Shown piece by piece: positions 4,205 to 43,849 of a DNA stretch of 64,000 bases. Positions within the stretch are counted from its first letter, which is position 1. The number at the start of each line of letters is the position of its first letter. The position numbers and the translations under genes are program-made. The notes beneath the pieces were generated by a model, which worked only from the letters and a program-made list of their open reading frames with translations, was not told the DNA's origin and ran no database searches. Source of the DNA: Collinsella aerofaciens (GTDB taxonomy: Bacteria; Actinomycetota; Coriobacteriia; Coriobacteriales; Coriobacteriaceae); assembly GCA_048502435.1 (NCBI GenBank), contig DBFRXD010000050.1, positions 667-64,666 on the forward strand. Direction: 5' to 3'.

Positions 4205-5215
4205 CTACTTAAGCGTTGCGTACATCACCGCCTTAATCGTATGCATGCGATTCTCCGCTTCTTGGAAAACACGAGACTTATCGGACTCAAAAACCTCGTC
4301 CGTGACTTCCATTTCGGTAACTCCAAACTTCTCAGCAATTTCGGCACCAACAGTAGTATTAGTATCGTGGAAGCTCGGAAGGCAGTGGAGGAAAATCGCC
4401 TCGGGCTTTGCCATAGACATCACCTCAGCGGTCACACGATACGGCGACATGAGCTTAATGCGGCTTTCCCACAGCTCTGCGGGCTGACCCATGCCAACCC
4501 AAACATCCGTGTAAATTACATCGGCATCACGAGCGCCTTCCTCAATATCCTCTGTAATGGTAATCGTCGATCCATGCTCGGCCGCAATACGACTACATTC
4601 TGCAAGGAGTTCAGGATCATAGGATGTAGCCCCCTCCGAATTTCCCCCGATTGGGCCGCAAGAACAGTAGTTAATGCCGAGCTTAGCGCAAATGACCATG
4701 AGCGAATCAGCGACGTTTCCGGCCGCCTTACCAAAAAATGTAAGTTTCCTGCCCTTAATCTCTCCAAACTCTTCACGCATGGTCAGAATATCGGCAAGCA
4801 CCTGAGTCGGGTGAAATTCAGTAGTCAGCCCATTCCAAACGGGAACCCCAGCTTTTGCAGCAAGCTCCTCAACCTTCGCCTGTTCAAAGCCGCGGTATTC
4901 AATTCCGTCATACATGCGGCCAAGGACGCGAGCCGTGTCCTCAATCGACTCCTTTTTACCCATCTGAGACGAGCCCGGATCCAAATAAGTTACACCCATG
5001 CCAAGGTCAAGTGCACCAACTTCGAAGGCGCAGCGAGTACGCGTGGAAGTCTTCTCAAATAGCAAAACAATATTCTTGCCTTCAAGGTATTTATGCGGAA
5101 CACCGGCACGCTTCATGCTTTTGAAGTTAGCAGAAAGCTCAAGCAGATACTCAATCTCTTCCGTCGTGTAATCAAGCAGCTTCAGAAAACTGCGCCCAGC
5201 GATATTAACACCCAT
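4205..5215 (-). CDS. arcB: Ornithine carbamoyltransferase, catabolic by context
   Basis: ORF 4205..5224 (-). It contains the STRTR carbamoyl-phosphate motif ([13 protein letters not shown]) and HCLP ([10 protein letters not shown]). The ATG at 5224 abuts GGGAG with no spacer, so the ATG at 5215 ([17 protein letters not shown]) is preferred. It lies directly downstream of arcA. Confidence 0.9.
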
Positions 5216-5247
5216 ATTCGCCATCTCCCATCACAGTGGATTTGCAA

Positions 5248-6492
5248 CTAAATATCTTCGCGCCAGAAGGGCATGCTCATGCAGCGCGGGCCACCACGAC
5301 CGCGGGACAGTTCCTCGGAGGGAACGACCAAAAGTTCCAAACCGTTCTTGTAGAGCTCATCATTTGTGACAACATTGCGCTCGTAAACACAGACTTTACC
5401 AGGAGCAACGGCAAGAGTGTTCGACCCGTCGTTCCACTGCTCGCGAGATGCCTCAACCATATCGCCGGCACCGCACTCAATAAGCTGCACCTTCTCCACG
5501 CCAGTAGCCATTTCAAGAATATGTTCAAGCGTGTCATCAATCTCTTGAACAGCGACCATTCCCTCAGAGTCACCACGAGTCAGACGATAAACACGAAGGG
5601 TCTCAAAAATACCGGGATAAACTGTGAACTTATCGAAATCCACCATGGTGCAAACGGTGTCAAGATGCATGTAAGCATAGCCGTTGGGGATTTTAATAGC
5701 GTAAACGGTATCGATCTCAGAATTCCCAGATCCCCAGAACAAATTCTTTGCAAGCTCCTCAATCGCAGCCGCCTCAGTTCGCTGGCTAATTCCAATAGCC
5801 AAGGTATGAGCGTTAATGTTAAGCACATCACCGCCCTCGATATGCCAGGGATTCTTATGGTCGTACCAAATCGGAGTCCCTGCATAATCGGGATGGTATT
5901 TGAAAATCGCTTCGTAGAAGGGCACTTCACGATCTCGCTGTTTCCAATACATATGGTGAAGCAGAACGCCTTTGCCCACGGAAGCAAGAGGATCGCGAGA
6001 GAAATATGAACTCGGAAGAGGCTTCAACACCAAATCATCGGGCTTCGCATCCTCATTATCCATCATACTAAGCGTAGTCGAAACGCGAGGCAGCTCAAGG
6101 TCACGATAACGATACCCCCCCATAGCCTCAAGTACAAACTGATACGAATCTGAAATAGCGTCGAGCTTTTCACGAACAGCCTGCTCAAGCATAGGATTGA
6201 CAATCCCGCTCTCAGCCATAAATGTATCGGTAAACTCAGCGCGAGCCGAGGGGCATGCATCCAGCGCTTCAGCAACGAGTTTCTCCATATAGAGAACCTC
6301 AACACCTTCGCTCCTCAGAAGATCCGCAAAGGCATCATGCTCCTTTTGAGCCACATCAAGATAGAAACAGTCGTGAATCCAGACATCCTCGAACTCTTCC
6401 GCCTTTACGTTCACAAGGTCACGACCGGGGCGGTGAAGCACAACTTTCTTGAGCTTACCAATCTCGCTGTGTACATTCAGTCCTTTAGACAT
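5248..6492 (-). CDS. arcA: Arginine deiminase
   Basis: 414-aa ORF starting MSKGLNVHSEIGKLKKVVLHRPG. It has the FSRD, HIEGGD and MHLDT motifs and the C-terminal GGPRCMSMPFWRED with the catalytic Cys. Confidence 0.92.
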   Translation of the reverse strand: MSKGLNVHSEIGKLKKVVLHRPGRDLVNVKAEEFEDVWIHDCFYLDVAQKEHDAFADLLRSEGVEVLYMEKLVAEALDACPSARAEFTDTFMAESGIVNPMLEQAVREKLDAISDSYQFVLEAMGGYRYRDLELPRVSTTLSMMDNEDAKPDDLVLKPLPSSYFSRDPLASVGKGVLLHHMYWKQRDREVPFYEAIFKYHPDYAGTPIWYDHKNPWHIEGGDVLNINAHTLAIGISQRTEAAAIEELAKNLFWGSGNSEIDTVYAIKIPNGYAYMHLDTVCTMVDFDKFTVYPGIFETLRVYRLTRGDSEGMVAVQEIDDTLEHILEMATGVEKVQLIECGAGDMVEASREQWNDGSNTLAVAPGKVCVYERNVVTNDELYKNGLELLVVPSEELSRGRGGPRCMSMPFWREDI

Positions 6493-6520
6493 TCCTGTTA
6501 CTCCATTTCAGCCATGAAAC

Positions 6521-7963
6521 CTACAGGGCAATAAGTCCCGAGATTGCTACGAATACGATATTGATGAGCGACACGACCAAGAAGAATTTCCAAACGGTCT
6601 TCCACCACTGGCCAAGCTTGATCTTGCACACGCCCAAACCCGCTACAAGAATGGCGCTAGTAGGACAGATCAAAGACATCGTCGCGCTACCCATGGAGAG
6701 AGCCCACACGGCGGCCTCGGGATTTAGGCCCATGAGTTCGGTCAAAGGTCCAAAAATGGGAGCGGTCAGTGCTGCAAGGCCAGATGAGCTGGGAACCAGA
6801 ATCGCCAGGAGGTTCTCAACCGCATAAAGAAGCGTAGTAAAGAGAACCGCCGGGATGCCGCCCAGACCAGTGGCGAGCGCATTGAGGATGGTATCGATGA
6901 TCATGCCGTCAGAGGCAATGACAAGGATGCCACGCGCAAGTCCAACGACAATTGCCGAGAAAGCAAAGTCAGCGATACCCGCAACAAATTCCTGAGCGAT
7001 GACGTCCTGACTAAAGCCCGCAATAACACCAGCCAACAGGCCCATGGCCAAAAAGACCGCAGAAATCTCGTTCATATACCAGCCCTGGGTCACAAGTCCC
7101 CAGATGATAAGGCACATTCCAGCGATAAATACCGCAAGCACGCCTTTTTGACGACCCGTAAATTCCGCGTCAAGGGCAGATTCATCGGCAGCGAACTCGA
7201 CTTTCTTGGCGATATCATCCTCAAATGTGATCGATGACTCAGGGTTCTTCTTTACCCTTCGTGCATAGAGGACAACCCAAGTAATTGCAACGGCGGTCAA
7301 AACAACCCAGGCAATCATACGCAGCCACAGCTGGGGGCTGTCCTGAATACCAAGAATACCCTGCGCAATGAGAACATTAAACGGATTAATCGTTGAGGCG
7401 ATGTAACCCGTGCGCGCTCCAACGAACACGACCATGAACGCCGTCATCGAGTCGAAGCCCATAGCCATCATAATTGGCATGAAGATCGCAAAGAACGGGA
7501 GAGTTTCTTCCGCCATGCCAAAGCTCGTTCCGCCCAATGCAAAGAGAACCATCGCAATAGGAATAATTAGAATGTCTTTGTTCTTAAAGCGGCGAACGAC
7601 ACGACCCATTCCGCTCGTGATAGCGCCCGTTTTAGTAATAACCTGAAACGAACCACCCACAATCAAGATGAATGCAACGACCTCAATTGCCTCTTGTATA
7701 CCGCGCGTTGGAGCCTGAAGAACATCGAAGACGCCTTGTCTGAGATCTACTTCATCCCCGGTTTCCTCGTCAATATATGTCTTTTCACTCTGCTCATACG
7801 TACCTGCGACAGTGACTTCACGACCGTTCACCTCCTGACGCTGATAGGACCCAGAGGGAACAATCCACGTGAGAACAGCGAAGATGACCATAAGTGCAAA
7901 GATGATCGCATATACGTGCGGGACCTTGAACTGCTTGATGCCTTTCGAACTTTCCGCTGCCAT
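6521..7963 (-). CDS. YfcC/DcuC-family membrane carrier; likely the arginine/ornithine antiporter of the ADI cluster
   Basis: 480-aa polytopic membrane ORF with AAGGAGGAG as RBS. The N-terminus (KVPHVYAIIFALMVIFAVLTWIVPSG) and overall pattern resemble YfcC-type carriers found in ADI operons. Substrate is inferred from context only. Confidence 0.75.
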   Translation of the reverse strand: MAAESSKGIKQFKVPHVYAIIFALMVIFAVLTWIVPSGSYQRQEVNGREVTVAGTYEQSEKTYIDEETGDEVDLRQGVFDVLQAPTRGIQEAIEVVAFILIVGGSFQVITKTGAITSGMGRVVRRFKNKDILIIPIAMVLFALGGTSFGMAEETLPFFAIFMPIMMAMGFDSMTAFMVVFVGARTGYIASTINPFNVLIAQGILGIQDSPQLWLRMIAWVVLTAVAITWVVLYARRVKKNPESSITFEDDIAKKVEFAADESALDAEFTGRQKGVLAVFIAGMCLIIWGLVTQGWYMNEISAVFLAMGLLAGVIAGFSQDVIAQEFVAGIADFAFSAIVVGLARGILVIASDGMIIDTILNALATGLGGIPAVLFTTLLYAVENLLAILVPSSSGLAALTAPIFGPLTELMGLNPEAAVWALSMGSATMSLICPTSAILVAGLGVCKIKLGQWWKTVWKFFLVVSLINIVFVAISGLIAL

Positions 7964-8089
7964 ATCTCCTCCTTCATTCCTTTTCCCATCTATCCAGCTG
8001 GCACCATAAATGTATGAGGTTGCTCAGCGGTGGTCGGCCAACCATCGCCATCGTGTCGCTTTTCACCTATGAACGGCAGCTAAAGTGAC

Positions 8090-8133
8090 GTTATTAATCA
8101 ATCTGATATTTAAAATTGATGTTATTTATCAAT
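8090..8133. promoter_or_regulatory. Candidate operator in the divergent arcD-like / arcA2 promoter region
   Basis: The 13-mers GTTATTAATCAAT (8090-8102) and GTTATTTATCAAT (8121-8133) differ at one position and lie 31 bp apart. They flank the inverted pair ATCAAT (8097-8102) / ATTGAT (8115-8120). This is the most AT-rich line in the window (14 G+C in 8101-8160 by my count). Confidence 0.35.
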
Positions 8134-8216
8134 TACATACGTCTTTTAACTTTTCCGCAACACAACAAGGAACCTGCTTTAGCCTTATATAAAAACCAGC
8201 AGGACAGGAGACAGAC

Positions 8217-9467
8217 ATGCAAGGCGTACACATAACAAATGAAATCGGTCATTTAAAAGCCGTACTTGTCCATCGACCAGGAGCTGAAACACAAAACTAC
8301 CCTGATGCCGACTTCAGCCAAGTTTTCTCCCTGCGAAAATGGAGCGGTCGTTTTGACCTCGACAAAGCAATATATGAGCACGATTCCATGGTTCAATTGC
8401 TTGAGAAACATGGCGTAGAAACCATTGAAATTAGGGACCTTCTCGAAGACTCACTTGAAACTGAGCCCCAGTCACTTAAATATTTTATTGATGACTACCT
8501 CCGTTGCAGTGGGGCAACAGGCAGAGAGTTCCTCGAGACAATAACCCAGCTGTTTGAGAACGCTAAGAACACCCAGGAATTGGTGAATATAGTACTTAAC
8601 GGCATTCGCTTTGGAGACACTGAGCTATGTTCAAACCAGTCGGAAACACTACGGGCGCTCGTGCACGAGCAATTTGACCCCGCCTCGCTCTTGGTCAATC
8701 CCCTCAGCACGCTTTTTTTCACTCGTGATCCTGCTGTGGTAGTCGGAGACGGCATCATCCTAAATCATATGTATTGGCCTGAGCGTGATCGTGAGGTCGC
8801 CTTATACCGGCAGATATTCACCCACCACAAGATCATGGGAGAAACCCCAGTATGTGATTTGAACAGGAGTAGTTACCATATCGAAGGCGGAGACATTCTT
8901 GTTATCAGTGCTAAGACAATATTAGTTGGAATCTCTGACCGAACTGAACCCGCCGCCGTCGAGTCACTTGCCAAAGAGCTCCTGACCTCAAATAAATTCC
9001 AGACCACCGAGCTAATTGCGATTCGAGTCCCCTCTGACGGGCTGCGTATCCACCTCGATACGTTCATAAGTAGAATTGATCACGACGCGTTCCTCATCGA
9101 TCGTGAGATATGCAATGCCGTTGATGCATACAGCATTCAACTAAAACGATCCGGAAAGGGCCTTACGTTCACTCCTATCGATCGCACGATTCCGGAAATA
9201 CTCTCTGCAGCCTGTTGCGAACCAATAAAAGTCATTGACTGCGGAGGCGGGAATCAAACCGCCTACGAAAGAGAGCGCCGGAACAACGCAACGTCTATCC
9301 TTGCGCTCTCGCCAGGAAAACTATGCGTATATGAAGAAAACGTTTGGACCAACGAAGCGCTTGAGAAAGCAGGAATGGAATTATTCCCGTTATCCATTGA
9401 CGAGCTCACCAAAGGCTATGGTGGCACAAACTGTCTATGCCTCCCTCTGTGGCGAGAGGATCTATAG
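8217..9467 (+). CDS. Arginine deiminase-family paralogue (divergent second copy)
   Basis: 416-aa ORF with RBS AGGAGA, starting MQGVHITNEIGHLKAVLVHRPG. It retains FFTRDP, HIEGGD and IHLDT and the C-terminal GGTNCLCLPLWREDL (Cys retained). It is clearly diverged from the arcA at 5248..6492. Confidence 0.85.
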   Translation: MQGVHITNEIGHLKAVLVHRPGAETQNYPDADFSQVFSLRKWSGRFDLDKAIYEHDSMVQLLEKHGVETIEIRDLLEDSLETEPQSLKYFIDDYLRCSGATGREFLETITQLFENAKNTQELVNIVLNGIRFGDTELCSNQSETLRALVHEQFDPASLLVNPLSTLFFTRDPAVVVGDGIILNHMYWPERDREVALYRQIFTHHKIMGETPVCDLNRSSYHIEGGDILVISAKTILVGISDRTEPAAVESLAKELLTSNKFQTTELIAIRVPSDGLRIHLDTFISRIDHDAFLIDREICNAVDAYSIQLKRSGKGLTFTPIDRTIPEILSAACCEPIKVIDCGGGNQTAYERERRNNATSILALSPGKLCVYEENVWTNEALEKAGMELFPLSIDELTKGYGGTNCLCLPLWREDL

Positions 9468-20623: not shown

Positions 20624-20660
20624 AACCGGTTGGAATTCCCGTTCCAACCGGTTTTTTGTT
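20624..20660 (+). terminator. Rho-independent terminator after the GtrA genes
   Basis: AACCGGTTGGAA-TTCCCG-TTCCAACCGGTT, followed by TTTTGTTTG. Confidence 0.8.
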
Positions 20661-20755: not shown

Positions 20756-21667
20756 CTAGCCTGTAACGTAATACCAGACTACGTTGTCGCCGTTTGAGAG
20801 AACGTAGTTGCTGCAGGCCGTCATGGGCGTCGTGCCGTTGACGGAGTACATCCAGCCGCTCGTGCCGCCGTGCTGTTTCTCGGCCAAACCACCAATCGCG
20901 GAAACATACGTGCCGTACGACGAGCCGTGCGCGTTGACAGAAAGGCCCAGCGCGCACAGGGCATCGTAAACGGTAGCGCCTTCGTTAAAGGTAAAGGTGC
21001 CACCAGAGGACACAGGATTGCCCACAGAGCTCGATGTGACCGAAACCGTCACCGTAACGTAGTTGGACTCCTGCGAGCCGCTCTGGCCGCCCGAGGAGGC
21101 GTTTCCACCATTAGAGGATGAGGCTCCATTAGACGACTGGCCACCGCCCGAAGAAGCACCACCAGACACCTTGGAAGTATCGCCGGCTCCCGTATTCTGG
21201 GCAGCGGATTTATCGCCAGACTTCTTACCGTCCTGGTCCTCGGACTTCTTGCTATCCGAGTTTTTGTCCGATTCCTTGTCCGAAGACTCGGAATCGTCCT
21301 TGCCGTCGTTCGAACCCTTGAACTCATCTTTTGCGTCATTCGATGACTTGGAATCCTTGGAACTGGCCTCGCCCGAAGTCGTAGTCGAGCCAGACGCCTT
21401 GGTGTCCTTGGTGACGACGCTCTCCCCCGTCACGGTCTGAATGATCCAGTCGATGGACCAGGCACCGCTTGTGGAAGGATGGACGAAACCCAGCGAGACG
21501 ACGATCAGAATGGTGCATGCAGCAGTCAGAACGCCGAGGAGCGCCTTGCGACGAGAGGTGGACGCCGCCGAAGCGGCGCCCTTTTGCTTTGGATCATCGA
21601 GCTGGATAAACGAGGAGTCGGGCTGTTGCCCGCTGGTCTCCTTGGGCTTATCGGGCATTACCGTCAC
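20756..21667 (-). CDS. Membrane-anchored protein with Ser/Asp/Lys-rich stalk and a C-terminal DUF4430 (transcobalamin-like C-terminal) domain
   Basis: 303-aa ORF with an N-terminal TM (ALLGVLTAACTILIVVSLGFV) and a low-complexity S/D/K region. The C-terminus VTVSVTSSSVGNPVSSGGTFTFNEGATVYDALCALGL...GGTSGWMYSVNGTTPMTACSNYVLSNGDNVVWYYV matches the GW.Y.VNG....LsdGD.i.W.Y signature I associate with DUF4430. Its start overlaps the stop of the upstream gene by 20 nt. Confidence 0.75.
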   Translation of the reverse strand: MTVMPDKPKETSGQQPDSSFIQLDDPKQKGAASAASTSRRKALLGVLTAACTILIVVSLGFVHPSTSGAWSIDWIIQTVTGESVVTKDTKASGSTTTSGEASSKDSKSSNDAKDEFKGSNDGKDDSESSDKESDKNSDSKKSEDQDGKKSGDKSAAQNTGAGDTSKVSGGASSGGGQSSNGASSSNGGNASSGGQSGSQESNYVTVTVSVTSSSVGNPVSSGGTFTFNEGATVYDALCALGLSVNAHGSSYGTYVSAIGGLAEKQHGGTSGWMYSVNGTTPMTACSNYVLSNGDNVVWYYVTG

Positions 21668-24600
21668 CCTTGCCGCGCTTGGTCAGCACGAAGACGGCGA
21701 TGAGTGCGAGGCCAATCACGCCGGCGGCGATGCCAACGATGGCGAGCGGATTGGTGCCAGTCTCCTGCTCGGAAGCACTAGAGGACTTCTTAGCAGTGGT
21801 CGTGGAAACAGCACCCGTATCGGACTTGGAATCGGACTTCTTGTCGGACTTGCTGTCCTTCTTGTCAGACTTCTTGTCAGACTTCTTCTCGTCCTTCTTA
21901 TCGGACTTATCGGAGTCCTTCTTGTCGGACTTGTTGTCCTTGGTCTCGGTCTTGGTCGACACCGTCGTCTTGGTCGTCGGCTTATGACCCGGGGCGACAG
22001 CGCCGCCAGCCTGCTGGCCCTTCGTGCCGGAGCCGGAACCCGTGCCAGTGCCAGCGCCAGCGCCGGAACCGTTGCCAGCGCCACCGTTGCCACCATTAGT
22101 GCCAGAACCGCCATTACCGCCAGGGTTAACGGCATTCTTGGTCCACTTGGCATACAGCGTCAGATCGGCCGTCACCGGCGTACTGAAGTCATACGCCTGC
22201 GTGCAAGCCTCATCGGTATACCAACCGCCGAAAGTGTAGCCATCGCGCGTCGGATCGGCCGGCTTGACCAGCTTGCCATCGGCCGTAGCAACAAACTTAG
22301 TGTCGCAAGCAGACCCGCCGTTGGAGTTAAAGGCAACCGTCCAAGACTCGACAGCTCCAAGTTTAAACAGCGTGCCCGAATCATTAATGTAGTAGAGATT
22401 GCCAGAAGCATCGGCAATGACCGGAGAGTCACAGTACTGGTAATGGCCAGCCGCATCATAAATCTGCGTCGCCTCTGCATCGCCGAGCGTATAGCGATAC
22501 ACGCCACCACCAGCAGAGTAGTTGACGTAATCCTTGCTATCCGCGCTGTTAACGGTGAAGTACACATAGGTCTTGCCGCCCTGAACACTCACCAGCGGAG
22601 TAGCAGCAATACCGTTGAGGCCAGCCGGCAGCGCCTTGCCGTCGGCAGCAGCGACCATCGTGGTCTTACCCGTCTTCAGGTTATAGAGAACCAGAGCAGA
22701 GCCAGTAGCCGTCTGTCCGCCGACAATCAGATTGTCACCAGACACCGCAGGGGCGCTCAGATTATTCGTAAGGCCCAGATCAACCGTCTTCTGTTCACTC
22801 AGCACGCCCTTCGCCGAAAGCGAAATCACATGGAGCTTTCCGTCGTGCGTCATCTGATAGAAGGTCGAACCATTGGACGGATCGGCAATGCAATCGGCAT
22901 TTGCGACAGCGCCGAGCTTCATGGTCGAAACGACATCGCCCGTCGTCTTATCAATGCACTTAAGCGTACCCGCGCTCGTAGGAACGATGGCATACTTATC
23001 CGTCAAAGCCGCACCAGTCCAGTAATAGCCCTCGGCAGGGTCGATGTTCTGCCAAGAAACTTCGCCCGTGGCAATCTTAATGCGTGCAAAGGAGCCGTTG
23101 CCGTAGGTCGCGTTGTAATTCTCGTCATACGAAATATCGACCGAGCCTACATAGACGTACTCGCCGTCCGAAACGACGGTGCAGGAGCTCTGCGTCAAGT
23201 CCGTCAAACCAGGCGTCAGCCACTTGCAGATCAGCTTGTCTGCAGTAATCGCCTGGACCGCACCGCCGTTGAGCGGAACGACGATAAGGCCATTGGTATA
23301 GATCGGACGAGAGGTATAGCTCACCTTGGAGGCAAGCGGCGCAGAGGCAACCTTTTTGCCCGTGGACGAATCGATCTTAATGAGCTCGTTCTCGGTCGCG
23401 ATGTACACAAAGCCGTTAGCAATGACAGGCTCGCTGCAGTTGGCATACTGCTGACCAGACTCGGCCTTCCAATCGAAGGCCCACTTAAGACCGGCGGCCT
23501 GCGCAGGCGTCTTGGCATCCGTTACGGTCGAACCGTTGCCGCTGTTGCCGTAGCCGGCCCACTCGGCATCCCAATCAGGAGTCGTCGCGCTCGGATCCAC
23601 GACAATCTTGTCGGGATCGGGCATGGGCGAATTATCGGTGGTATAGGCAAGCGTGACCTTATCGCCGCTCTGGAGCGTAATCTGATTGGCGCAGAGTAAG
23701 GAGGGCTCTCCGTTGATATACAGATGCCAATATTTATTGGTCGCAGCATCCCAACCATACGGCTTGTGATCGAACGGCGAAGTAATGGAATTCAGGAACC
23801 AGTACTCACCACTCTGGGAGCCGTTGTACGCAACGCCCTTGGCCTTCAGAACTGCCTCAATAAGGTTCTGGGCCGTGGAGCCTTCGGGCAGAGAAACATT
23901 GCTTGCCGTGCCCCAACGCGTATTGTTCCCGTTGACATCGGGACCGATAACATCGACAGACCCAAGAACCTGGCCAGGAAGGGCATCGGCGTCAGCACCA
24001 TACATAAAGGTGACGGCATCGCCCTCATGGAGCTCGTAGGCACCGGCGCCAACGTCGGCGAACTTGCCATTTACGTAGAAGCGCCAATAGCTATTGGTCG
24101 CAGCATCCCAGCCATAGGACTTGCCATCGAATGGCGAATAAATGCCGTTGAGGAACCAGCCCCAAGACGATTCGCTGGCATCGAGCTTAAGGCCGGTCTG
24201 CTCAAGGAGATCCTTGGCAGTGGAGCCTGCCTTGAGACTCGTCTGGCCCGTCGAAGCCCAAACCTGCTGCTTGCCGTCCTTGTCCTTACCGAGAACCTGA
24301 ACAGAAGCATGGACAGAATCGGAGGGCAGCTGGTCGCCCCAGCCACCGTAGAACCACGTAACGGTATCGCCGGCATGGATGGTGACATTGTCCGCCGTAT
24401 AGTCACTCGACTTGCCGTTGATGAACAGCTGCCAATAGGTCGAATAATCTTGGGGCGTACCCAGCTCAACACCGTTGTACTTAAGGCTCAGAATGAAGGA
24501 GCCCGCAGCAACGGCGTCAATGTCGTTCGCCTCGAGTGCGGCCTTCGTAAGGTCAAGCGCGCTCGAACCGGACGTCACCACATACTGCGCGTTATCGACC

Positions 24601-25463
24601 CAAGTCTGAGTCTTGCCCTGGGCATCGCGACCAATGACGGTCACATTTGCGGCAACCTGGTCCTTAACGACAGGGGACGCGCTACCAGCCGTATAGGCAA
24701 ACTCAATCTTCTGCCCTTGGGTGAGCTTGACGCTGCTCGCGCCAACCGAGGAAGACGCGCCGTCGACGAACAGCTGCCAGTAGGCATAAGTCGCCGGATC
24801 GAAGGCAAGCGTACGGCCATCGCTCGGGGATGTGATGCTTTTGAGGTAGAAACCGTATGCCGTGTTCGGATCGTAATCCGCCTTGAAGCCCGTCTTCTGC
24901 TGCAGCTTAACGAAGGCATCCGCAGCCGTCGCGCCCTCGTCGAGCTTGAGTTGCGTAGGTGCCACCCAGGTCTGAGCCTTGCCGTCGGCATCGGTGCCGA
25001 TAATCGAGAACGAGACCTCGACTTGCTTCTTGGCGACATCGCCGGTTTCTGTCGGGTTCTCTGTCTGGACGGCAGCCGCGGCGGCAGATCCTGCTTGGCC
25101 AGCGGATACCGTCGAAGACTGCTCGCTCGTGGCAGGGCTCTCCCCCGTCGCCGAGCCTTCGTCGCCAGTTGCTGCCTCTGTAGTGGCGGCACTAGCTGCA
25201 GGCGCGCTCCCGGAATCCGAAACCTCGGCGCCGCTCTGCTCAGCGGTACCGCCCGCAAGCGCTGCGTCCTCGCCTGGCGTCGTAGCCTGAGCCACAGCGT
25301 CGGTAATGCCCTCGGCACCCTCGGCCCACAGCTGAGCCGGCGTGGTGCCAAAGGCCATCGCGAAGGCCAGGAATGCCACCAGGCAGCGCTTTGCCACACC
25401 GCGCGCGATTACGCCACGGCGACGAAGCGAGGAACGCTGGCACTCGTCCTCAAACATATCCAT
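21648..25463 (-). CDS. Giant cell-surface protein: signal peptide, 4 tandem DUF4430/transcobalamin-like modules, PQQ/BamB-like beta-propeller, Listeria-Bacteroides (Flg_new) repeat, Gly/Ser and Lys/Ser/Asp stalk, C-terminal sorting-signal-like anchor
   Basis: ORF 21648..25607. I choose the ATG at 25463 because AGGAGA lies 4 nt upstream and the longer version would run into the riboswitch. Signal-like segment: RRRGVIARGVAKRCLVAFLAFAMAFG. The four repeats end ...YWQLFVDGASS..GQKIEFAY, ...YWQLFINGKSS..GDTVTWFY, ...YWRFYVNGKFA..GDAVTFMY and ...YWHLYINGEPS..GDKVTLAY. Propeller-blade-like repeats include NGFVYIATENELIKIDSSTGKKV and YAIVPTSAGTLKCIDKTTGDVV. The Flg_new-like repeat is GYTFGGWYTDEACTQAYDFSTPVTADLTLYAKW. 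The tail is ...QETGTNPLAIVGIAAGVIGLALIAVFVLTKRGKG. Confidence 0.8.
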   Translation of the reverse strand: MDMFEDECQRSSLRRRGVIARGVAKRCLVAFLAFAMAFGTTPAQLWAEGAEGITDAVAQATTPGEDAALAGGTAEQSGAEVSDSGSAPAASAATTEAATGDEGSATGESPATSEQSSTVSAGQAGSAAAAAVQTENPTETGDVAKKQVEVSFSIIGTDADGKAQTWVAPTQLKLDEGATAADAFVKLQQKTGFKADYDPNTAYGFYLKSITSPSDGRTLAFDPATYAYWQLFVDGASSSVGASSVKLTQGQKIEFAYTAGSASPVVKDQVAANVTVIGRDAQGKTQTWVDNAQYVVTSGSSALDLTKAALEANDIDAVAAGSFILSLKYNGVELGTPQDYSTYWQLFINGKSSDYTADNVTIHAGDTVTWFYGGWGDQLPSDSVHASVQVLGKDKDGKQQVWASTGQTSLKAGSTAKDLLEQTGLKLDASESSWGWFLNGIYSPFDGKSYGWDAATNSYWRFYVNGKFADVGAGAYELHEGDAVTFMYGADADALPGQVLGSVDVIGPDVNGNNTRWGTASNVSLPEGSTAQNLIEAVLKAKGVAYNGSQSGEYWFLNSITSPFDHKPYGWDAATNKYWHLYINGEPSLLCANQITLQSGDKVTLAYTTDNSPMPDPDKIVVDPSATTPDWDAEWAGYGNSGNGSTVTDAKTPAQAAGLKWAFDWKAESGQQYANCSEPVIANGFVYIATENELIKIDSSTGKKVASAPLASKVSYTSRPIYTNGLIVVPLNGGAVQAITADKLICKWLTPGLTDLTQSSCTVVSDGEYVYVGSVDISYDENYNATYGNGSFARIKIATGEVSWQNIDPAEGYYWTGAALTDKYAIVPTSAGTLKCIDKTTGDVVSTMKLGAVANADCIADPSNGSTFYQMTHDGKLHVISLSAKGVLSEQKTVDLGLTNNLSAPAVSGDNLIVGGQTATGSALVLYNLKTGKTTMVAAADGKALPAGLNGIAATPLVSVQGGKTYVYFTVNSADSKDYVNYSAGGGVYRYTLGDAEATQIYDAAGHYQYCDSPVIADASGNLYYINDSGTLFKLGAVESWTVAFNSNGGSACDTKFVATADGKLVKPADPTRDGYTFGGWYTDEACTQAYDFSTPVTADLTLYAKWTKNAVNPGGNGGSGTNGGNGGAGNGSGAGAGTGTGSGSGTKGQQAGGAVAPGHKPTTKTTVSTKTETKDNKSDKKDSDKSDKKDEKKSDKKSDKKDSKSDKKSDSKSDTGAVSTTTAKKSSSASEQETGTNPLAIVGIAAGVIGLALIAVFVLTKRGKGDGNAR

Positions 25464-25606
25464 TTGTCTCCTACTGTCTGTACTTGGAGCGTTGCCTTGA
25501 AGCTGCCCCACGTCATCGCGCATGTTGCGCTCGAGTTCCCCCATCGGGGTCCCCCTTCCCTCCAGAGCCCTATGCACACCGGCGGCATACGCCGCAGCCG
25601 CATGCA

Positions 25607-25779
25607 AGATGGGAGGCGATCCGACTTAACCTTAACGACTCGGGCGCGCCGTCCGATCTGCGACGCGAACATTCCGAGCCAAGAGGAATTACGGTTACTG
25701 GTACAGCCGGGGACTTGCACCCCGATTCTCCCAAACGCGCAGGAAAACCGCGCATTCGTGCGTCTCCGCACCACCATCT
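25607..25779 (-). ncRNA. Cobalamin (B12) riboswitch aptamer, candidate
   Basis: The minus-strand core GGGAGAAUCGGGGUGCAAGUCCCCGGCUGUACCAGUAACCGUAA (reverse complement of 25689-25732) matches the conserved GGGAA..GGUGnAAnUCC..GCUG..GUAA core. A B12-box-like AAGUCGGAUCGCCUCCC lies at 25611-25627 (reverse complement). AGAUGG (25779-25774) and CCAUCU (25612-25607) can form P1. All recognised by eye from memory of the class consensus; no covariance-model search was possible. Confidence 0.7.
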
Positions 25780-25788
25780 AGGCCATCG

Positions 25789-25817
25789 ATTAAAACCGTC
25801 AATATGCTATCACGCAA
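25789..25817 (-). promoter_or_regulatory. Sigma70-like promoter candidate for the riboswitch operon
   Basis: On the minus strand: TTGCGT (25817-25812), a 17-nt spacer, then TTTAAT (25794-25789). The predicted start lies a few nt before the P1 5' strand. Confidence 0.35.
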
Positions 25818-25843
25818 AAGGGCCTCGCACGCAGGCGAAGCCC
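25816..25843 (-). terminator. Rho-independent terminator after the ABC1-kinase gene
   Basis: Minus strand: GGGCUUCGC-CUGCGU-GCGAGGCCC followed by UUUUG. Confidence 0.7.
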
Positions 25844-30060: not shown

Positions 30061-30915
30061 CTATTTCGATGCGCGCTCCGCCGCCTCAATCACGTGTTTG
30101 GCGAGAATCGCCGTTGTCACGGCGCCCACGCCGCCCGGCACGGGGGTGATGGCACCAACAACCGGCTCCGCGGCAACAAAATCGACGTCACCCACCAGCT
30201 TGCCAGCGTCCTCATCCCAGTTAATGCCCACATCAATGATCGTCTGGTCCTCGCGAACGGCATCCACGCCAATCGTGCGCGCGCGTCCAACGGCTGCGAC
30301 CACAATATCAGCCGCACGACATTCGGCAGCCAAGTCGCGCGTATGCGTATGGCACGTCGTCACCGTGGCATTGCGAGCCGTAAGCATGGCGGCAACGGGA
30401 CGGCCAATCACCAGCGATCGACCGACGACCGCGACCTTGGCCCCATCCAGCTCAACGCCGTAATGGCCCAGCAACGCCAGCACGGCCTCGGCCGTGCAGG
30501 GAGCAAAACCCTCGCCGCGCCCCGAAAGCGTGGTAAGCAGCGAAGACGGCGTCATGGAGTCAACGTCCTTGGCGGGATCGAGCGCTGCGGCGACGGCGTT
30601 CTCGTCAAGGCCGGCGGGCAGCGGGCGGAACATCAGACAGCCATGAACAGCCGAATCAGTATTGATGTCCTCGATGGCCGCCAGCAGCTCGTCCTGCGAA
30701 ACATCGGCAGGAAGCAAAACGCGGCGCGCCTCAATGCCAACCTTCTCGCAGCGCTTGAGAGCGCCGCGCTCGTAGGATAGGTCGTCCTCGCGCTCACCCA
30801 CACGCACGATAGCCAACGTCGGAACAACGCCCCGCTCGCGCAGGGCTGCGCAGCGAGCAGCAAGTTCCTCAGTCAAAGCGCGAGCAACGGGAGCACCCTT
30901 CAGCAGCTCGGCCAT
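30061..30915 (-). CDS. folD: Bifunctional methylenetetrahydrofolate dehydrogenase / methenyl-THF cyclohydrolase
   Basis: ORF 30061..30981; ATG at 30915. MAELLKGAPVARALTEEL...PTLAIVRVGEREDDLSYERGALKRCEKVGI...GRSLVIGRPVAAML...VTTCH...PVPGGVGAVT. Confidence 0.92.
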   Translation of the reverse strand: MAELLKGAPVARALTEELAARCAALRERGVVPTLAIVRVGEREDDLSYERGALKRCEKVGIEARRVLLPADVSQDELLAAIEDINTDSAVHGCLMFRPLPAGLDENAVAAALDPAKDVDSMTPSSLLTTLSGRGEGFAPCTAEAVLALLGHYGVELDGAKVAVVGRSLVIGRPVAAMLTARNATVTTCHTHTRDLAAECRAADIVVAAVGRARTIGVDAVREDQTIIDVGINWDEDAGKLVGDVDFVAAEPVVGAITPVPGGVGAVTTAILAKHVIEAAERASK

Positions 30916-30917
30916 GG

Positions 30918-31550
30918 CTATCCCCTCTTCCTGGCGGCATCGGCGGCACGGCGCGCCAGCGCATCGGCGCGCGGCAGCCACGTATCCAGCAGCTCATCGC
31001 ACGCCGCCTCAAGCTCCTCAGCGCGTGCCCGATCTTTCATAGACGTAGTGTTGGCAAAGAGCGTCAGGCTCGCGCCCTGCATGGCGGCGCGGCAGAATAC
31101 GGCGCCGCACGCCACGTCGGACAGCAGCTGTCGGGAGCCCTTGTCCGCCATGTCCTCGAGCAGCGCCAGCGCGCGCCCGCAGGCATCCATAATGCGATAC
31201 GGTGGCATGGCGGCCACATGCAGCGCATCCTGAATCGCGGTCGCTCGAGCCGGATCGTCACGCGGAATACCGTACGCCGCGGACACCTGCCCGTAGGCAC
31301 GAACGTCCTCGGCAACCAGACCCACAAGTTCCTGCGCCAACTCATCCGCCTGGGCAAACGCGCGCGTCAGATCGTCTGCGCGATCGGCAAGCGCGGGGTT
31401 TGTCGCCCCATAGCGGGCAACCATTCCGCAAAGCGAGGCGCCCAGCGCACCTACAAAGGCGCTCGCGCTGCCACCACCGGGAACCGGCTCGCGCGCGGCC
31501 AGCGCCTCGGCAAAACCGCGACAGGTTTTATCCATCATCTCTTGGCTCAT
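30918..31550 (-). CDS. Cyclodeaminase/cyclohydrolase-family protein (FTCD C-terminal / FchA-like)
   Basis: ORF 30918..31610; ATG at 31550. FAEALAAREPVPGGGSASAFVGALGASLCGMVARY is the typical FTCD_C motif. Its stop lies 2 nt from the folD start. Confidence 0.8.
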   Translation of the reverse strand: MSQEMMDKTCRGFAEALAAREPVPGGGSASAFVGALGASLCGMVARYGATNPALADRADDLTRAFAQADELAQELVGLVAEDVRAYGQVSAAYGIPRDDPARATAIQDALHVAAMPPYRIMDACGRALALLEDMADKGSRQLLSDVACGAVFCRAAMQGASLTLFANTTSMKDRARAEELEAACDELLDTWLPRADALARRAADAARKRG

Positions 31551-31929
31551 ACGCACACGCACCTTCAAGTCATATATATCGGTCGGGCGGCCGACGCCGG
31601 CCGACCGCATCGATCACGTAATGGTGCTAAGTCTAGCCCATAAGTACGCGAGCGTCAGCGCATCTGGCCATCGCGGATTTCTATGGCACGCGATAGGCGT
31701 CGACAACGCAAGCATGGGACACATGGCCCATCTTTCGAGACTCCCGAGCAGCACAAGCTGGGGCATATCTATAAGTAAGGAACCCGTTGGGGAACGGCCG
31801 CGCAACGGCCACAAGCGATGAACGGAGGCATAAGTCGCACAGTACACAGAGACATCCGCCGCCAGCGCAATCAGTACCCCAACAGCATGCGGCGCCGTGA
31901 TGTCATCAGCAGACAAGGAGGACGCCACC

Positions 31930-37916: not shown

Positions 37917-37942
37917 AAAGGGCCGGTTGCAGCCGGCCCTTT
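37917..37942. terminator. Bidirectional terminator-like hairpin in a 395-nt non-coding gap
   Basis: AAAGGGCCGG-TTGCAG-CCGGCCCTTT, a perfect 10-bp stem. The minus strand continues TTTTCTG. Confidence 0.5.
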
Positions 37943-38132
37943 AGACGATAGCACCTGCGTTGCCCGCGCTTCCGAAGTGTGACTAACTGAGGAGCGGGTT
38001 CCGTGGCACAACCTGATCTTGCCCAGCGAGGCGGCCCTTTTGCAGCCGGTCCACCGTTTATTTACATCTACCCCCTGCCAAACTACCGGATGGCAGCCCC
38101 CATGCCTGCGAGCCGTCCCGTGCTGCGCTTCC

Positions 38133-39470
38133 CTACTTCCCAAAGATCGCAGCGAGCAAGCCCTTGCGTTTGGGCTTCTCCTCTCGGCAGGAACCCTCGG
38201 CAACCGCTGCAACCTGGCGCGGTTGCTCGCCGCCTCCACGGCGCACGATCTGGTATAGGAACGGAGATTTAACATATTTGACCTCGACGGGCGTGGCGTG
38301 TACGGTGCTCTCACCGGACAGATGCAGGCTCGGGCTGAGCGGCGCCACGATATGCGTTTCGCGCTTGTCGCTAAACACCACCGCGGCCGCACGACCCGTC
38401 TGGCCGTTTACGGCAATGCGCACCTGCTCGCCATCGCGGCCATCCGTCGCCGGACGATCGACAAAGTAGACCGGCACCATCACCAGGCCATCCTTATGCT
38501 TGCGGGCCTTGCGCGCCCAGGTTCGGATGCTCTTTTTATTGAGCCCCAGTACGGCCTCGGCATCGTTGCCCGCAACGTCGAGCGCCAACTTATCAATGAC
38601 CACCTGGTCCTTGGTAGATGCATCGACGGAGACAACGCGGAAGTCGCCTTCCTGCATGGCGGGATCGAACGGACCGACCTTGGCAAAGTCCCACGGCTCC
38701 AAAATGCCCATGAGGCGAACGTCCAGGTAGTTTGCTCTGGGGTATGCCCAGTCGAGCACCTCGTAGTACACCAGGGTTTCCTTGCTCAGGCCCTTGCCCG
38801 GGAAGCTCGCCATCATGCGCAGGTCCGCCAGCGCCATGGGGAAATAGAAGAGCATCATGTCGTTTTGGATCGCATCTTCCACGTCGTGCCCGGCAAAGGC
38901 ATCCGGATACTGGCGCACCAGCTGCAGCGCGTTGGCACGTGCCTGCTGCGGCGAGATTTCGCAGGGAATACCCTGATCCGGCACATACTCCGCACCCACG
39001 CCCATGGTCAGACGCTTGCTAAACGTCCCTGGCTTGAGCAGGTCCGCAATGCCGATCTTATTGCCGCAGGACGGGCACTCAAACACGCGCTGGGTCGACT
39101 CGCCCTCAAAGGACGCACCACAGAAGGGGCAAGGAATGCTCACATGCGTGGCCTCTTGGAACTCCTGCGCCGTGCCGCGATCCTCCCACAGCAGATGTTC
39201 CAGGACCGACTGATTGCGCCAGTGCGAATTGAAGAAATACCAGTCCGGGTCCTCCGGGCGCTCGAGTTGCGACACATGCGTGAGCTTGAGCAGTCCATTC
39301 ACCACCGTCAGCGGCGTATGGCGAATGCCCAGGGCGCTCTTGGGCTCCCCCGCATCAGCCTGCCACGGAACGACCGTGCCGCAATAGGCGCACTCAAAGC
39401 TGCGCTTAGCCTGGTGCGAGTACATAGGGCCGCCGCAGTTTTGACATTTAATGGCAAACATCTCGTCCAT
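38133..39470 (-). CDS. Hypothetical protein with two zinc-ribbon motifs
   Basis: ORF 38133..39521. The ATG at 39470 follows AAGGAGGA. The zinc-ribbon motifs are CQNCGG-x17-CAYCG and CPFCGA-x15-CPSCGN. A roughly 300-aa unrecognised C-terminal region follows, ending in a basic tail. Confidence 0.7.
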   Translation of the reverse strand: MDEMFAIKCQNCGGPMYSHQAKRSFECAYCGTVVPWQADAGEPKSALGIRHTPLTVVNGLLKLTHVSQLERPEDPDWYFFNSHWRNQSVLEHLLWEDRGTAQEFQEATHVSIPCPFCGASFEGESTQRVFECPSCGNKIGIADLLKPGTFSKRLTMGVGAEYVPDQGIPCEISPQQARANALQLVRQYPDAFAGHDVEDAIQNDMMLFYFPMALADLRMMASFPGKGLSKETLVYYEVLDWAYPRANYLDVRLMGILEPWDFAKVGPFDPAMQEGDFRVVSVDASTKDQVVIDKLALDVAGNDAEAVLGLNKKSIRTWARKARKHKDGLVMVPVYFVDRPATDGRDGEQVRIAVNGQTGRAAAVVFSDKRETHIVAPLSPSLHLSGESTVHATPVEVKYVKSPFLYQIVRRGGGEQPRQVAAVAEGSCREEKPKRKGLLAAIFGK

Positions 39471-39688
39471 GGAAACGTCCTCCTTTGCACAGGGGCTGTC
39501 GACATTAAGTATGTCGAGCAAGCAGGCACATGCCCATACCCATGTGGCCCAAAATGGACCACCCAGGCAGACGAGAAGGCTCGCTCGTTAGCACCGGCAG
39601 ACTATTGCTGCATTTTCTGAGCATCGGTGCACGGCGCCCCCGCGCGAGCTACACTATCCCCTTAAACATGATTGTGAGGACGACCGCT

Positions 39689-42037: not shown

Positions 42038-43705
42038 TTAGAACAGGCCGGTGATGTTGCCGTCGTTGTCGACGTCGATGTTCTCGGCCGCAGGGACCTT
42101 GGGCAGGCCCGGCATGGTCAGAACACTGCCAGTCAGTGCGACCACAAAGTGGGCGCCGGCGGAAACCTTGAGCTCACGCACCGTGATGCGGAAGTTCTCG
42201 GGAGCGCCCAGGGCCTTGGCGTTGTCGCTAAAGCTGTACTGCGTCTTGGCGACGCACACCGGCAGGTTGCCAAAGCCATTCTCGCGCAGCTCGGCGAGCT
42301 GGCGCTTGGCGGCCGGCGTAAAGTCAACGCCGTCGGCGCGGTAGACCTTGGTGGCAACGGCCTCGAGGGCATCAGCGACATCGGCGCCGTCCTCATAGGC
42401 AAACTTGAGCTCGCTCGGCTGCTCAATCAGACGCATGACCTCATCGGCAAGCTCGAGCGCGCCCTCGCCGCCCTTGGCCCAGACCTCGGAAAGCTTAACG
42501 TTGACGCCGAGCTTCTGGCACTCGGACTCAATGAGCGCGAGCTCGGCCTCGGTGTCCGTCGGGAAGCGGTTGATGGCGACCACGCAGGGCAGACCATATA
42601 CGTTCTGGATGTTGTCGACGTGACGCAGCAGGTTGGGCATGCCAGCCTTGAGTGCCTCGAGGTTCTCCTCGTTGAGATCGGCCTTGGCGACGCCACCGTT
42701 GTACTTCAACGCGCGAGCGGTGGCGACGACCACGACGGCGTTGGGACGAACGCCCGTCATGCGGCACTTGATGTCCAGGAATTTCTCGGCACCCAGGTCG
42801 GCACCAAAGCCCGCCTCGGTAATGGCGACATCGCCAAAACGCATAGCCATACGCGTGGCCATGATGGAGTTGCAGCCGTGGGCGATATTGGCGAAGGGAC
42901 CGCCGTGGACAAACGCAGGCGTGCCCTCGAGTGTTTGCACCAAGTTGGGCTTGAGCGCATCCTTAAGCAGCGCAGCCATGGCGCCCTGAGCCTTGAGGTC
43001 GCGGGCGCGGACGGGGTCGCCGGCATAGCTGTAGCCGACGACGATCTCGCCCAAGCGCTCCTTGAGGTCGTTGATGCTCGTGGACAGGCACAGGATTGCC
43101 ATGACCTCGGAGGCAACGGTGATATCGAAGCCGTCCTCGCGCGGCACGCCCTGGGCCTTGCCGCCAATGCCGTCGATAACATGGCGCAGCTGGCGGTCGT
43201 TCATGTCGACAACGCGCTTCCAGGTGATGCGCTTAACGTCAATACCGAGCTGATTGCCCTGCTGGATGTGGTTATCGAGCATGGCGGCCAGCAGGTTGTT
43301 GGCAGCACCGATAGCGTGGAAGTCGCCGGTAAAGTGCAGGTTGATGTCCTCCATAGGGATGACCTGGGCCCAACCGCCGCCGGCGGCACCACCCTTTACG
43401 CCAAAGACGGGACCGAGCGAAGGCTCGCGCAGGGCCACGGCGCTCTTAACACCGCGACGGCGCAGACCATCGGCCAGACCGATGGTCGTGGTGGTCTTGC
43501 CCTCGCCGGCGGGCGTGGGGTTGATGGCGGTCACGAGGACGAGCTTGGCCTGGTGATCAGTCGACTCGTTGAGCAGTGAATAGTCGACCTTAGCCTTGTC
43601 GAAGCCGTACGGAATAAGGTGCTTAACGTCGACGCCGGCGTTCTTGGCCACCTCGGTAATAGGCAGCGGCGTGACAGAACGTGCGATTTCGATGTCAGTA
43701 GGCAT
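42038..43705 (-). CDS. fhs: Formate--tetrahydrofolate ligase
   Basis: ORF 42038..43780; ATG at 43705. [24 protein letters not shown]...[14 protein letters not shown]... is typical Fhs. Confidence 0.93.
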
Positions 43706-43849
43706 GGGCGGTCCTTTCGTTACCGAATGAGAAAAAGACCAATTCAGCATAGCACGGGCGCGCAACAGTAAAACGCCCATACCCGATGAACGGCGATATG
43801 TTTACCCGATGCCCAGCGATAGCCCAACAGCCCGCCAAAACAAAGCGCC

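Follow-up and report, generated by a model that had tools for sequence, protein, structure and literature searches.

Candidate corrinoid-capture gene pair of Collinsella aerofaciens: transcobalamin-like DUF4430 domains and a BamB-like beta-propeller behind a cobalamin-riboswitch-like leader

Several described systems bear on the capture and import of vitamin B12 (cobalamin, Cbl). The isolated beta domain of transcobalamin was found to bind both Cbl and cobinamide (Cbi) (PMC5599065), and of the interfaces in transcobalamin, the one that Cbl forms with this domain is the most favourable (PMC11107200). In Bacteroides, the surface proteins BtuG, BtuK1 and BtuGH are controlled by riboswitches; BtuGH consists of a small B12-binding domain and a beta-propeller, a propeller face can bind B12, and capture proceeds in multiple steps (PMC13616437). 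The same review, from 2026, calls the role of B12-binder homologues in Gram-positive Firmicutes ‘entirely uncharacterized’. Based on in silico analysis, Burroughs, Balaji, Iyer and Aravind (2007) described Gram-positive proteins, either secreted or anchored, that carry transcobalamin-like SLBB domains, with an SLBB-beta-propeller fusion (for example, in Clostridium tetani), a second SLBB paralogue in the operon and CbiO/CbiQ neighbours, and predicted B12 scavenging (PMC1796856). ECF-CbrT, an energy-coupling factor (ECF) transporter, takes up both Cbl and Cbi without competition by hemin; the experiments, in E. coli and in proteoliposomes, used the ECF complex by itself, and no extracellular binding protein was supplied (PMC5997447). 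Collinsella aerofaciens reportedly requires B12 to grow despite carrying synthesis genes (PMC6593275), as would suit an organism that scavenges corrinoids or corrinoid precursors. Here, a stretch of 64,000 nucleotides (nt) of C. aerofaciens DNA (assembly GCA_048502435.1, contig DBFRXD010000050.1, positions 667 to 64,666; hereafter the 64-kb window) was analyzed, and a pair of genes on its minus strand was found to encode a large protein with four DUF4430 domains and a beta-propeller and a small partner with one DUF4430 domain. These two genes probably form a B12-responsive unit for the extracellular capture of corrinoids, and the large protein is a strong candidate for the B12-capture protein of a bacterium without an outer membrane.

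The large open reading frame (ORF; 21648-25463, minus strand) encodes 1271 amino acids (aa) plus a stop codon, and its ATG at 25463 is preceded by AGGAG, in agreement with the preliminary description of this DNA, which was made from the sequence alone. Four stretches of the protein were matched by the Pfam family DUF4430 (PF14478; E 1e-46; score 157.7 bits, cut-off 23.8). The repeat boundaries were taken from a local hidden Markov model (HMM) built on the large-protein repeats, which placed the four at nt 23640-25028, close to the span of about nt 23628-25022 proposed earlier. The AlphaFold model of repeat 4 alone had a predicted local distance difference test score (pLDDT) of 97.2. When this model was compared with the PDB by Foldseek, the top 19 matches were the beta domains of transcobalamin, haptocorrin and intrinsic factor together with 3u7z, the DUF4430 structure of Ruminococcus gnavus (template modelling (TM) score normalised on the query 0.52-0.74, probability 1.0). 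A profile composed of the five DUF4430 domains of the window and three from relatives gave transcobalamin-2 and transcobalamin-1 as its best matches among PDB sequences. Since sequence and structure agree, the label ‘transcobalamin-like’ is confirmed; the preliminary description had applied it to these repeats and had suggested Pfam, AlphaFold and Foldseek as checks. The single Flg_new repeat that it had read was also recovered at aa 1042-1106 (PF09479; E 3e-22, 78.8 bits against 27), with a TIGR02543 match of 44.6 against 20.95 bits and a PDB match to the InlB B-repeat. The partner protein has a transmembrane segment at its N-terminus, then a Ser/Asp/Lys/Gly stalk and, at its C-terminus, a single DUF4430 domain (aa 230-301, nt 20765-20980; Pfam 69.3 bits, E 4e-19), and its gene is translationally coupled to the large gene.

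The region of aa 497-1037, comprising repeat 4, the linker and the propeller, was modelled by AlphaFold with an alignment of 87 family sequences, and the model reached a pLDDT of 95.7 and a predicted TM score (pTM) of 0.91. About 30 strands were found in the propeller model, fitting eight blades. The best Foldseek matches of the model in the PDB were BamB, YxaL, tetrathionate hydrolase and pyrroloquinoline quinone (PQQ) dehydrogenases, with TM scores on the target of up to 0.77; those to BamB ranged from 0.70 to 0.77 with E about 1e-12. When the propeller sequence alone was searched against the PDB, BamB was again matched (E 5e-6). Pfam PF13570 scored 32.4 bits on the propeller, far under its curated cut-off of 133, so the assignment stands on structure, not on Pfam. 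A PQQ/BamB-like propeller had been proposed earlier at nt 22353-23495: the fold was recovered by AlphaFold and Foldseek, whereas the Pfam match stayed below cut-off. The motifs YVYFTVN and YCDSPV..D..G.LYYINDSG are kept across the family. BtuG and BtuK were absent from the top 50 Foldseek matches and from the PDB sequence matches at E<=10. From these searches, the propeller is BamB/PQQ-like with about eight blades and is no relative of the seven-bladed Bacteroides B12 binders, and the kinship with BtuG suggested in the preliminary description was not supported. A DUF4430-like domain in Bacteroides BtuH was considered and rejected: neither transcobalamin nor DUF4430 is mentioned in the paper on BtuH, and BtuH was absent from the Foldseek matches of the repeat.

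The family was searched for among 1.84 billion cluster representatives (50% identity clusters), and 1143 relatives were found at E<=1e-3, 285 of them at E<=1e-30. Architectures were counted in the best 150 representatives of the 1143. The last DUF4430 domain, the linker and the propeller were contiguous in 127 of these, and the DUF4430 copy number was 0 in 10 representatives, 1 in 47, 2 in 60, 3 in 26 and 4 in 7, so that four copies are unusual. Some members carry the propeller and no DUF4430 domain (P0143, P0157, P0180, P0168, P0177 and P0182), and in these a signal peptide, the propeller, a low-complexity stalk and an anchor were recognized. Of these, the locus of P0143 (L084, 8001-13714) was inspected, and the gene is followed there by genes for a small DUF4430 protein and a CbrT-type ECF transporter. 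Since propeller-only members exist, it is the propeller that is constant in the large gene, rather than the array of DUF4430 domains. A protein search with aa 146-1040 returned only Collinsella proteins of 94-97% identity; the database name of the Collinsella protein is ‘DUF4430 domain-containing protein’. A search for related loci with a nine-sequence query gave 586 relatives, of which the 80 retained were all near-identical Collinsella loci and were used for riboswitch conservation only; one related locus is 100% identical, which places the window in C. aerofaciens or a very close relative. Gene copies of 98-99% identity were also seen on contigs L018, L034, L036 and L040, which were binned as Sodaliphilus, Methanobrevibacter smithii, ‘Firmicutes bacterium’ and Bacteroidaceae; most likely, they reflect binning contamination rather than gene transfer.

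The coupled small DUF4430 partner gene was also found in loci L082, L084, L087, L089 and L090. In L081, L084, L086 and L089, the gene for the large propeller protein is followed in turn by those for the small DUF4430 membrane protein, an EcfT/CbiQ-like protein, a fused ATP-binding cassette (ABC) ATPase and an ECF S component. The same order is seen in L090 up to the ATPase, where the contig ends, and its first three genes are seen in L087. The gene pair stands alone, without ECF genes, in the window and in the syntenic L082. When three of the S components were tested, ECF-CbrT (PDB 6FNP) was the sole significant PDB match (E 3e-8 to 2e-7). The gene pair and ECF genes share an operon in five other lineages, which argues for a functional link to import. 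In L081 (6807-10479), the DUF4430-propeller/ECF operon is directly followed by feoA, feoA, feoB and fur, which may be an iron or haem hint or a coincidence.

The preliminary description had also placed a cobalamin riboswitch upstream of the large gene. With Rfam at the gathering threshold, no cobalamin riboswitch was found in the 64-kb window. Below this threshold, the AdoCbl-II match had an E-value of 4.4e-5 in an 801-nt region and of 0.0036 in the whole window, of which it was the sole riboswitch-type match. Sub-threshold matches also lie directly upstream of the 46-49% identical orthologues in L082 (RF00174; 21.1 against 31.5 bits), L087 and L088 (28.7 and 28.2 against 36.5 bits). Of the 89 related loci, 82 have exactly one copy of a 31-nt core, GGTG..CC...GCT.TACCAG.AACCGT, which lies upstream of the gene and on its strand; by chance, none would be expected. 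It occurs in 78 of the 80 Collinsella loci and also in L090, where the variant core, large gene, small gene, EcfT-like gene and ATPase gene stand in one row; it is kept in five diverged lineages (the window, L082, L087, L088 and L090), always upstream on the gene strand. RNAalifold was applied to four leaders, and the consensus was reliable only for the P4 and P2-like hairpins. The pairing of P4 is kept through two compensatory CG<->GC swaps, with four or five lineages, so that covariation statistics are weak. In the distant relative L086, the DUF4430 operon lies behind a full Cobalamin riboswitch (RF00174, 87 bits). Based on the orthologue matches, the single-copy core, the compensatory pairs of P4 and the RF00174 match of L086, the leader element was judged to be real. 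The earlier proposal thus stands for an element conserved in position and pairing, and falls short in its score, which is below the Rfam threshold. The leader, as read from its sequence, is a divergent, short class-II-type cobalamin-riboswitch lineage lying under the Rfam cut-offs, with a predicted response to its ligand. At its 3' end, a conserved purine-rich GCYCUGGAGG stands just before the ATG at 25544, and the orthologue starts directly follow the same stretch. A promoter scan upstream of the leader found none; the scan uses the sigma-70 consensus and says little for an actinobacterium. The hairpin behind the upstream gene (25820..25843) is predicted to separate the locus from upstream transcription.

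Taken together, the leader element, the coupled DUF4430 gene and the CbrT-type ECF genes of relatives support the corrinoid role that the preliminary description had predicted. The large protein would be secreted and held by its C-terminal membrane anchor, displaying the four DUF4430 domains, the propeller and the Flg_new repeat on a flexible stalk of about 130 aa, and the partner, anchored at its N-terminus and also carrying a stalk, would present one further DUF4430 domain near the membrane. When cobalamin is scarce, the riboswitch would permit expression, and when it is plentiful, expression would presumably be repressed. The DUF4430 domains would bind Cbl or Cbi, as the isolated transcobalamin beta domain does, with the last DUF4430 domain and the propeller possibly acting as the core capture unit. 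The ligand could then move from the large protein to the small partner and on to an importer of the ECF-CbrT type, which is encoded beside the gene pair in relatives and would lie outside this window in Collinsella.

Since the propeller is constant in the large gene and is modelled with the adjacent DUF4430 domain as one unit (pTM 0.91), we conjecture that it may play the part of the alpha-toroid in transcobalamin. A bolder form of this idea, which we regard as possible and rather doubtful, is that the last DUF4430 domain and the propeller build a composite corrinoid pocket, in which the BamB-like propeller would replace the alpha6/alpha6 toroid, and that this pocket, the small partner and a CbrT-type ECF importer would make up a relay spanning the wall. 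The Isd haem relay resembles such an arrangement. If true, the composite-pocket relay would be the first system for extracellular cobamide capture to be described from a bacterium that lacks an outer membrane, analogous to the Bacteroides BtuG/H/J/K relay and independent of it in evolution.

Several results weigh against corrinoid capture. In the literature searched, corrinoid-binding data for bacterial members of this architecture were not found. The riboswitch match is under the Rfam gathering score in the window and in every orthologue, and relatives L084 and L089 gave no riboswitch match. Beyond the gene pair and its leader, no B12 transporter, B12-dependent enzyme or other B12-related gene was found in the 64-kb window. 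When a CbrT-like S component was searched for in Collinsella, the matches listed were all from Atopobiaceae. The repeats of the large protein carry a hairpin insert, SPxDGxxxGWDAATNxYW, which is longer than in transcobalamin or in the small partner, so that their ligand specificity could differ.

Other roles were considered for the gene pair. The four DUF4430 domains might serve as a reservoir, hoarding cobamides at the surface or denying them to competitors with no obligatory hand-over to a dedicated transporter. This would suit the lack of a transporter gene adjoining the pair in the window or in the syntenic L082 and a repeat number at the high end for the family (7 of the 150 representatives), and a reservoir function was proposed for Bacteroides BtuJ1 in a preprint (bioRxiv 10.1101/2025.07.01.662609). 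We nevertheless consider a reservoir without import unlikely in view of the operons shared with ECF transporter genes in five other lineages, and the reservoir and uptake roles are not mutually exclusive. The ligand might also be haem or another tetrapyrrole, as has been proposed for Lactobacillus sakei lsa1836-1840, an ECF-like operon linked to haem content that encodes proteins resembling the transcobalamin alpha and beta domains (bioRxiv 10.1101/864751). Apart from this precedent of ECF-linked haem scavenging, the feoA, feoA, feoB and fur genes behind the operon of L081 speak for haem. The regulatory RNA of the window, however, belongs to the cobalamin clan, and a full RF00174 element stands in L086; the linked S components match CbrT, whose transport hemin does not compete; and the fold matches of repeat 4 are confined to B12 carriers. 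Haem or a similar ligand was therefore regarded as very unlikely.

Alternatively, the main function of the large protein could be adhesion or the binding of glycans or of the host at the cell surface, in which case the DUF4430/SLBB domains would bind polysaccharide or act as spacers and the upstream RNA would be decayed or a chance match. A propeller, a Flg_new repeat and a stalk are typical components of surface proteins of this kind, the stalk is here polymorphic in length as in many adhesins, the neighbouring genes are of the GtrA type, and the Rfam score is sub-threshold; moreover, Burroughs et al. suggested that SLBB-fused domains may tether to peptidoglycan or capsule (PMC1796856). Against this, orthologues of only 46-49% identity retain both the position and the pairing of the riboswitch-like core, the linkage to CbrT-type ECF genes recurs in relatives, and the repeats belong to the transcobalamin-like clade, not to the polysaccharide-export clade. 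An adhesin was thus judged quite improbable, and corrinoid capture by the gene pair is preferred.

The coordinates of the features are collected in Table 1. Two start codons have to be considered for the large gene, since its ORF is open further 5' of the ATG at 25463. The leader alignment with orthologues places the ATG at 25544 27 codons 5' of it, and the N-terminus of orthologue P0129, MGELERNM, corresponds to the start at 25544. Both starts are used by gene callers in homologues (P0129 and P0121). The orthologue alignment favours the ATG at 25544, beside the riboswitch, while the ATG at 25463 has its own AGGAG, and either may be the start. The N-terminus agrees with the family consensus P-x-x-A-x-A in the family alignments, and no lipobox was found there by sequence inspection. 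The low-complexity linker behind it varies from 68 to 104 aa among Collinsella orthologues.

Table 1. Features of the gene pair and its surroundings (positions in the 64-kb window; aa numbering from the ATG at 25463)
Feature	Residues	Position (nt)	Strand	Basis or remark
Hairpin between the convergent operon and the GtrA gene		20624..20653		13-bp palindrome; called on + strand
Downstream partner gene	303 aa from GTG	20756..21667	-	overlaps the large-gene stop; ATG at 21658
C-terminal anchor	1236-1271	21651..21758	-	TNPLAIVG, hydrophobic segment, KRGKGDGNAR; C-terminal segment TNPLAIVGIAAGVIGLALIAVFVLTKRGKGDGNAR
Gly/Ser-rich, then Lys/Ser/Asp-rich stalk	1108-1235	21759..22142	-	sequence; partly from 12-nt tandem array 21832-21938
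Flg_new / Listeria-Bacteroides repeat	1039-1107	22143..22349	-	Pfam, TIGR02543, PDB
BamB/PQQ-like beta-propeller, about eight blades	656-1037	22353..23498	-	AlphaFold, Foldseek, PDB sequence search
Ordered linker from repeat 4 to propeller	609-655	23499..23639	-	pLDDT mostly 91-97 in the two-domain model
DUF4430 repeat 4	497-608 (local HMM: 498-608)	23640..23975	-	adjoins the propeller N-terminally across the family
DUF4430 repeat 3	383-489	23997..24317	-	Pfam and local HMM
DUF4430 repeat 2	269-373	24345..24659	-	Pfam and local HMM
DUF4430 / transcobalamin-like repeat 1	146-258	24690..25028	-	Pfam and local HMM
Ala/Ser/Thr/Glu/Gly-rich low-complexity linker	48-145	25029..25322	-	sequence
Signal-peptide-like N-terminus	1-47	25323..25463	-	basic n-region, LVAFLAFAMAFG core, PAQLWA/EG; read from sequence
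Alternative in-frame ATG	M22 of long ORF	25542..25544	-	aligns with orthologue start codons directly 3' of the riboswitch
Conserved 5' leader with riboswitch-like aptamer		25545..25790	-	orthologue alignments
Aptamer core, Rfam AdoCbl-II (RF01689)		25658..25742	-	30.7 bits, below the gathering score of 36.5
Terminator-like hairpin and T-run after the upstream ABC1-kinase gene		25820..25843	-	9-bp stem with 7 GC pairs, then TTTTGCGTGA

The signal-like N-terminus, the Gly/Ser and then Lys/Ser/Asp stalk and the hydrophobic anchor with its basic tail, all named in the preliminary description, were read again from the sequence. The same description had called the protein wall-anchored, for which no sortase motif could be found. 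The C-terminus, which reads ...SEQETGTNPLAIVGIAAGVIGLALIAVFVLTKRGKGDGNAR, has no LPXTG-type or L[PA]xT[GAS] motif, and the latter was present in only 3 of the 150 family representatives. Because this motif is absent, the protein is regarded as membrane-anchored or as carrying an unrecognised sorting signal, and wall anchoring is unsupported. In 82 of the 150 representatives (P0121-P0270), PxW[PA] (for example, LPIWPFVG) or NPxA (for example, NPLAIVG) was found just before the hydrophobic segment and its Arg/Lys tail. Coriobacteriia may use these motifs as a C-terminal sorting signal that has so far gone unrecognised, or the motifs may simply mark where the transmembrane segment begins. In a set of 92 close Collinsella orthologues, the stalk ranged from 78 to 146 aa, and the DUF4430-propeller-Flg_new core was steady at 949-963 aa. 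Since a 12-nt tandem repeat makes up the coding sequence of the Lys/Ser/Asp stalk, the length polymorphism probably arises by repeat slippage.

The upstream neighbour of the pair is an ABC1-kinase gene, and two convergent GtrA genes lie downstream. The hairpin between the partner gene and the nearest GtrA gene likely marks the end of the transcription unit and may be used in both directions. The ECF genes (EcfT, EcfA-A' and a CbrT-like S component) and BtuB are absent from the 64-kb window. Elsewhere in the window, a Collinsella-1 RNA (RF01700, 156 bits; 37920-38113, minus strand) was found directly 3' of a 462-aa ORF (38133-39521, minus strand) with a match to the Cas12f1-like/TnpB TNB domain. 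As the position 3' of TnpB is the usual one for an omega or guide RNA, the orphan motif RF01700 could represent the omega-RNA of an element of the IS200/IS605 type. An arginine deiminase cluster (two arginine deiminase genes, ornithine carbamoyltransferase and a DcuC-type carrier) and folate one-carbon genes (FolD, an FTCD_C-domain protein and formate-tetrahydrofolate ligase) were also recognized, jointly at 4205-9467, 30061-31610 and 42038-43780; both are unlinked to the DUF4430-propeller locus.

Competition for cobamides shapes gut communities, and Bacteroides is the only group in which the machinery of extracellular capture is known in detail. The locus and its family, with at least 285 clusters at 50% identity (E<=1e-30), provide a concrete and abundant candidate for Gram-positive B12 capture and allow the question to be tested directly in a commensal that is abundant in the gut. 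Should the domains prove to bind corrinoids, they would offer monoderm gut bacteria a route to B12 through the thick wall and would be bacterial counterparts of the human B12 carrier domain, and the leader would represent a divergent cobalamin riboswitch lineage missed by current Rfam thresholds.

Among known systems, the closest counterparts of the locus are the SLBB proteins of Burroughs et al. The preliminary description had implied that the architecture was new, but the fusion, the paralogue, the CbiO/CbiQ neighbours and the B12 role were all published in 2007 (PMC1796856). The architecture was thus already predicted computationally and would not surprise a specialist, and no experimental study of it was found in the literature searched (DUF4430, Gram-positive CbrT and riboswitch-linked surface propellers). 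The Collinsella protein and the SLBB set are alike in the signal peptide, the beta-grasp domain, the propeller fusion, the paralogous partner and the ECF genes of relatives. Unlike that set, the Collinsella member comes from the high-GC Coriobacteriia and has four SLBB copies, an anchor without LPXTG and a divergent riboswitch, and the adjacency to the transporter is lost. With mammalian transcobalamin, haptocorrin and intrinsic factor, the repeats share the beta-domain fold (TM score normalised on the query 0.65-0.74, probability 1.0) and the Pfam family, but they have only 12-17% identity to these carriers, a longer hairpin insert, four copies and a membrane tether; the alpha6/alpha6 toroid of the carriers is absent from the Collinsella protein, and the propeller follows instead.

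The propeller has the fold of the BamB/YxaL/PQQ type (TM score up to 0.77 on the target) and a weak sequence similarity to BamB (E 5e-6). In contrast to BamB and the PQQ enzymes, it has no outer-membrane assembly context and no sign of a PQQ cofactor or of catalysis. The S components encoded beside the gene pair in relatives match ECF-CbrT of Lactobacillus delbrueckii (6FNP). With BtuG, BtuK1 and BtuGH of Bacteroides, the logic of a surface location, riboswitch control and a domain joined to a propeller is common, whereas the parts are not homologous: the Bacteroides binders are seven-bladed lipoproteins that dock on the outer-membrane protein BtuB, and the Collinsella protein is an eight-bladed, BamB-like protein of a monoderm, with a link to ECF transporters in its relatives.

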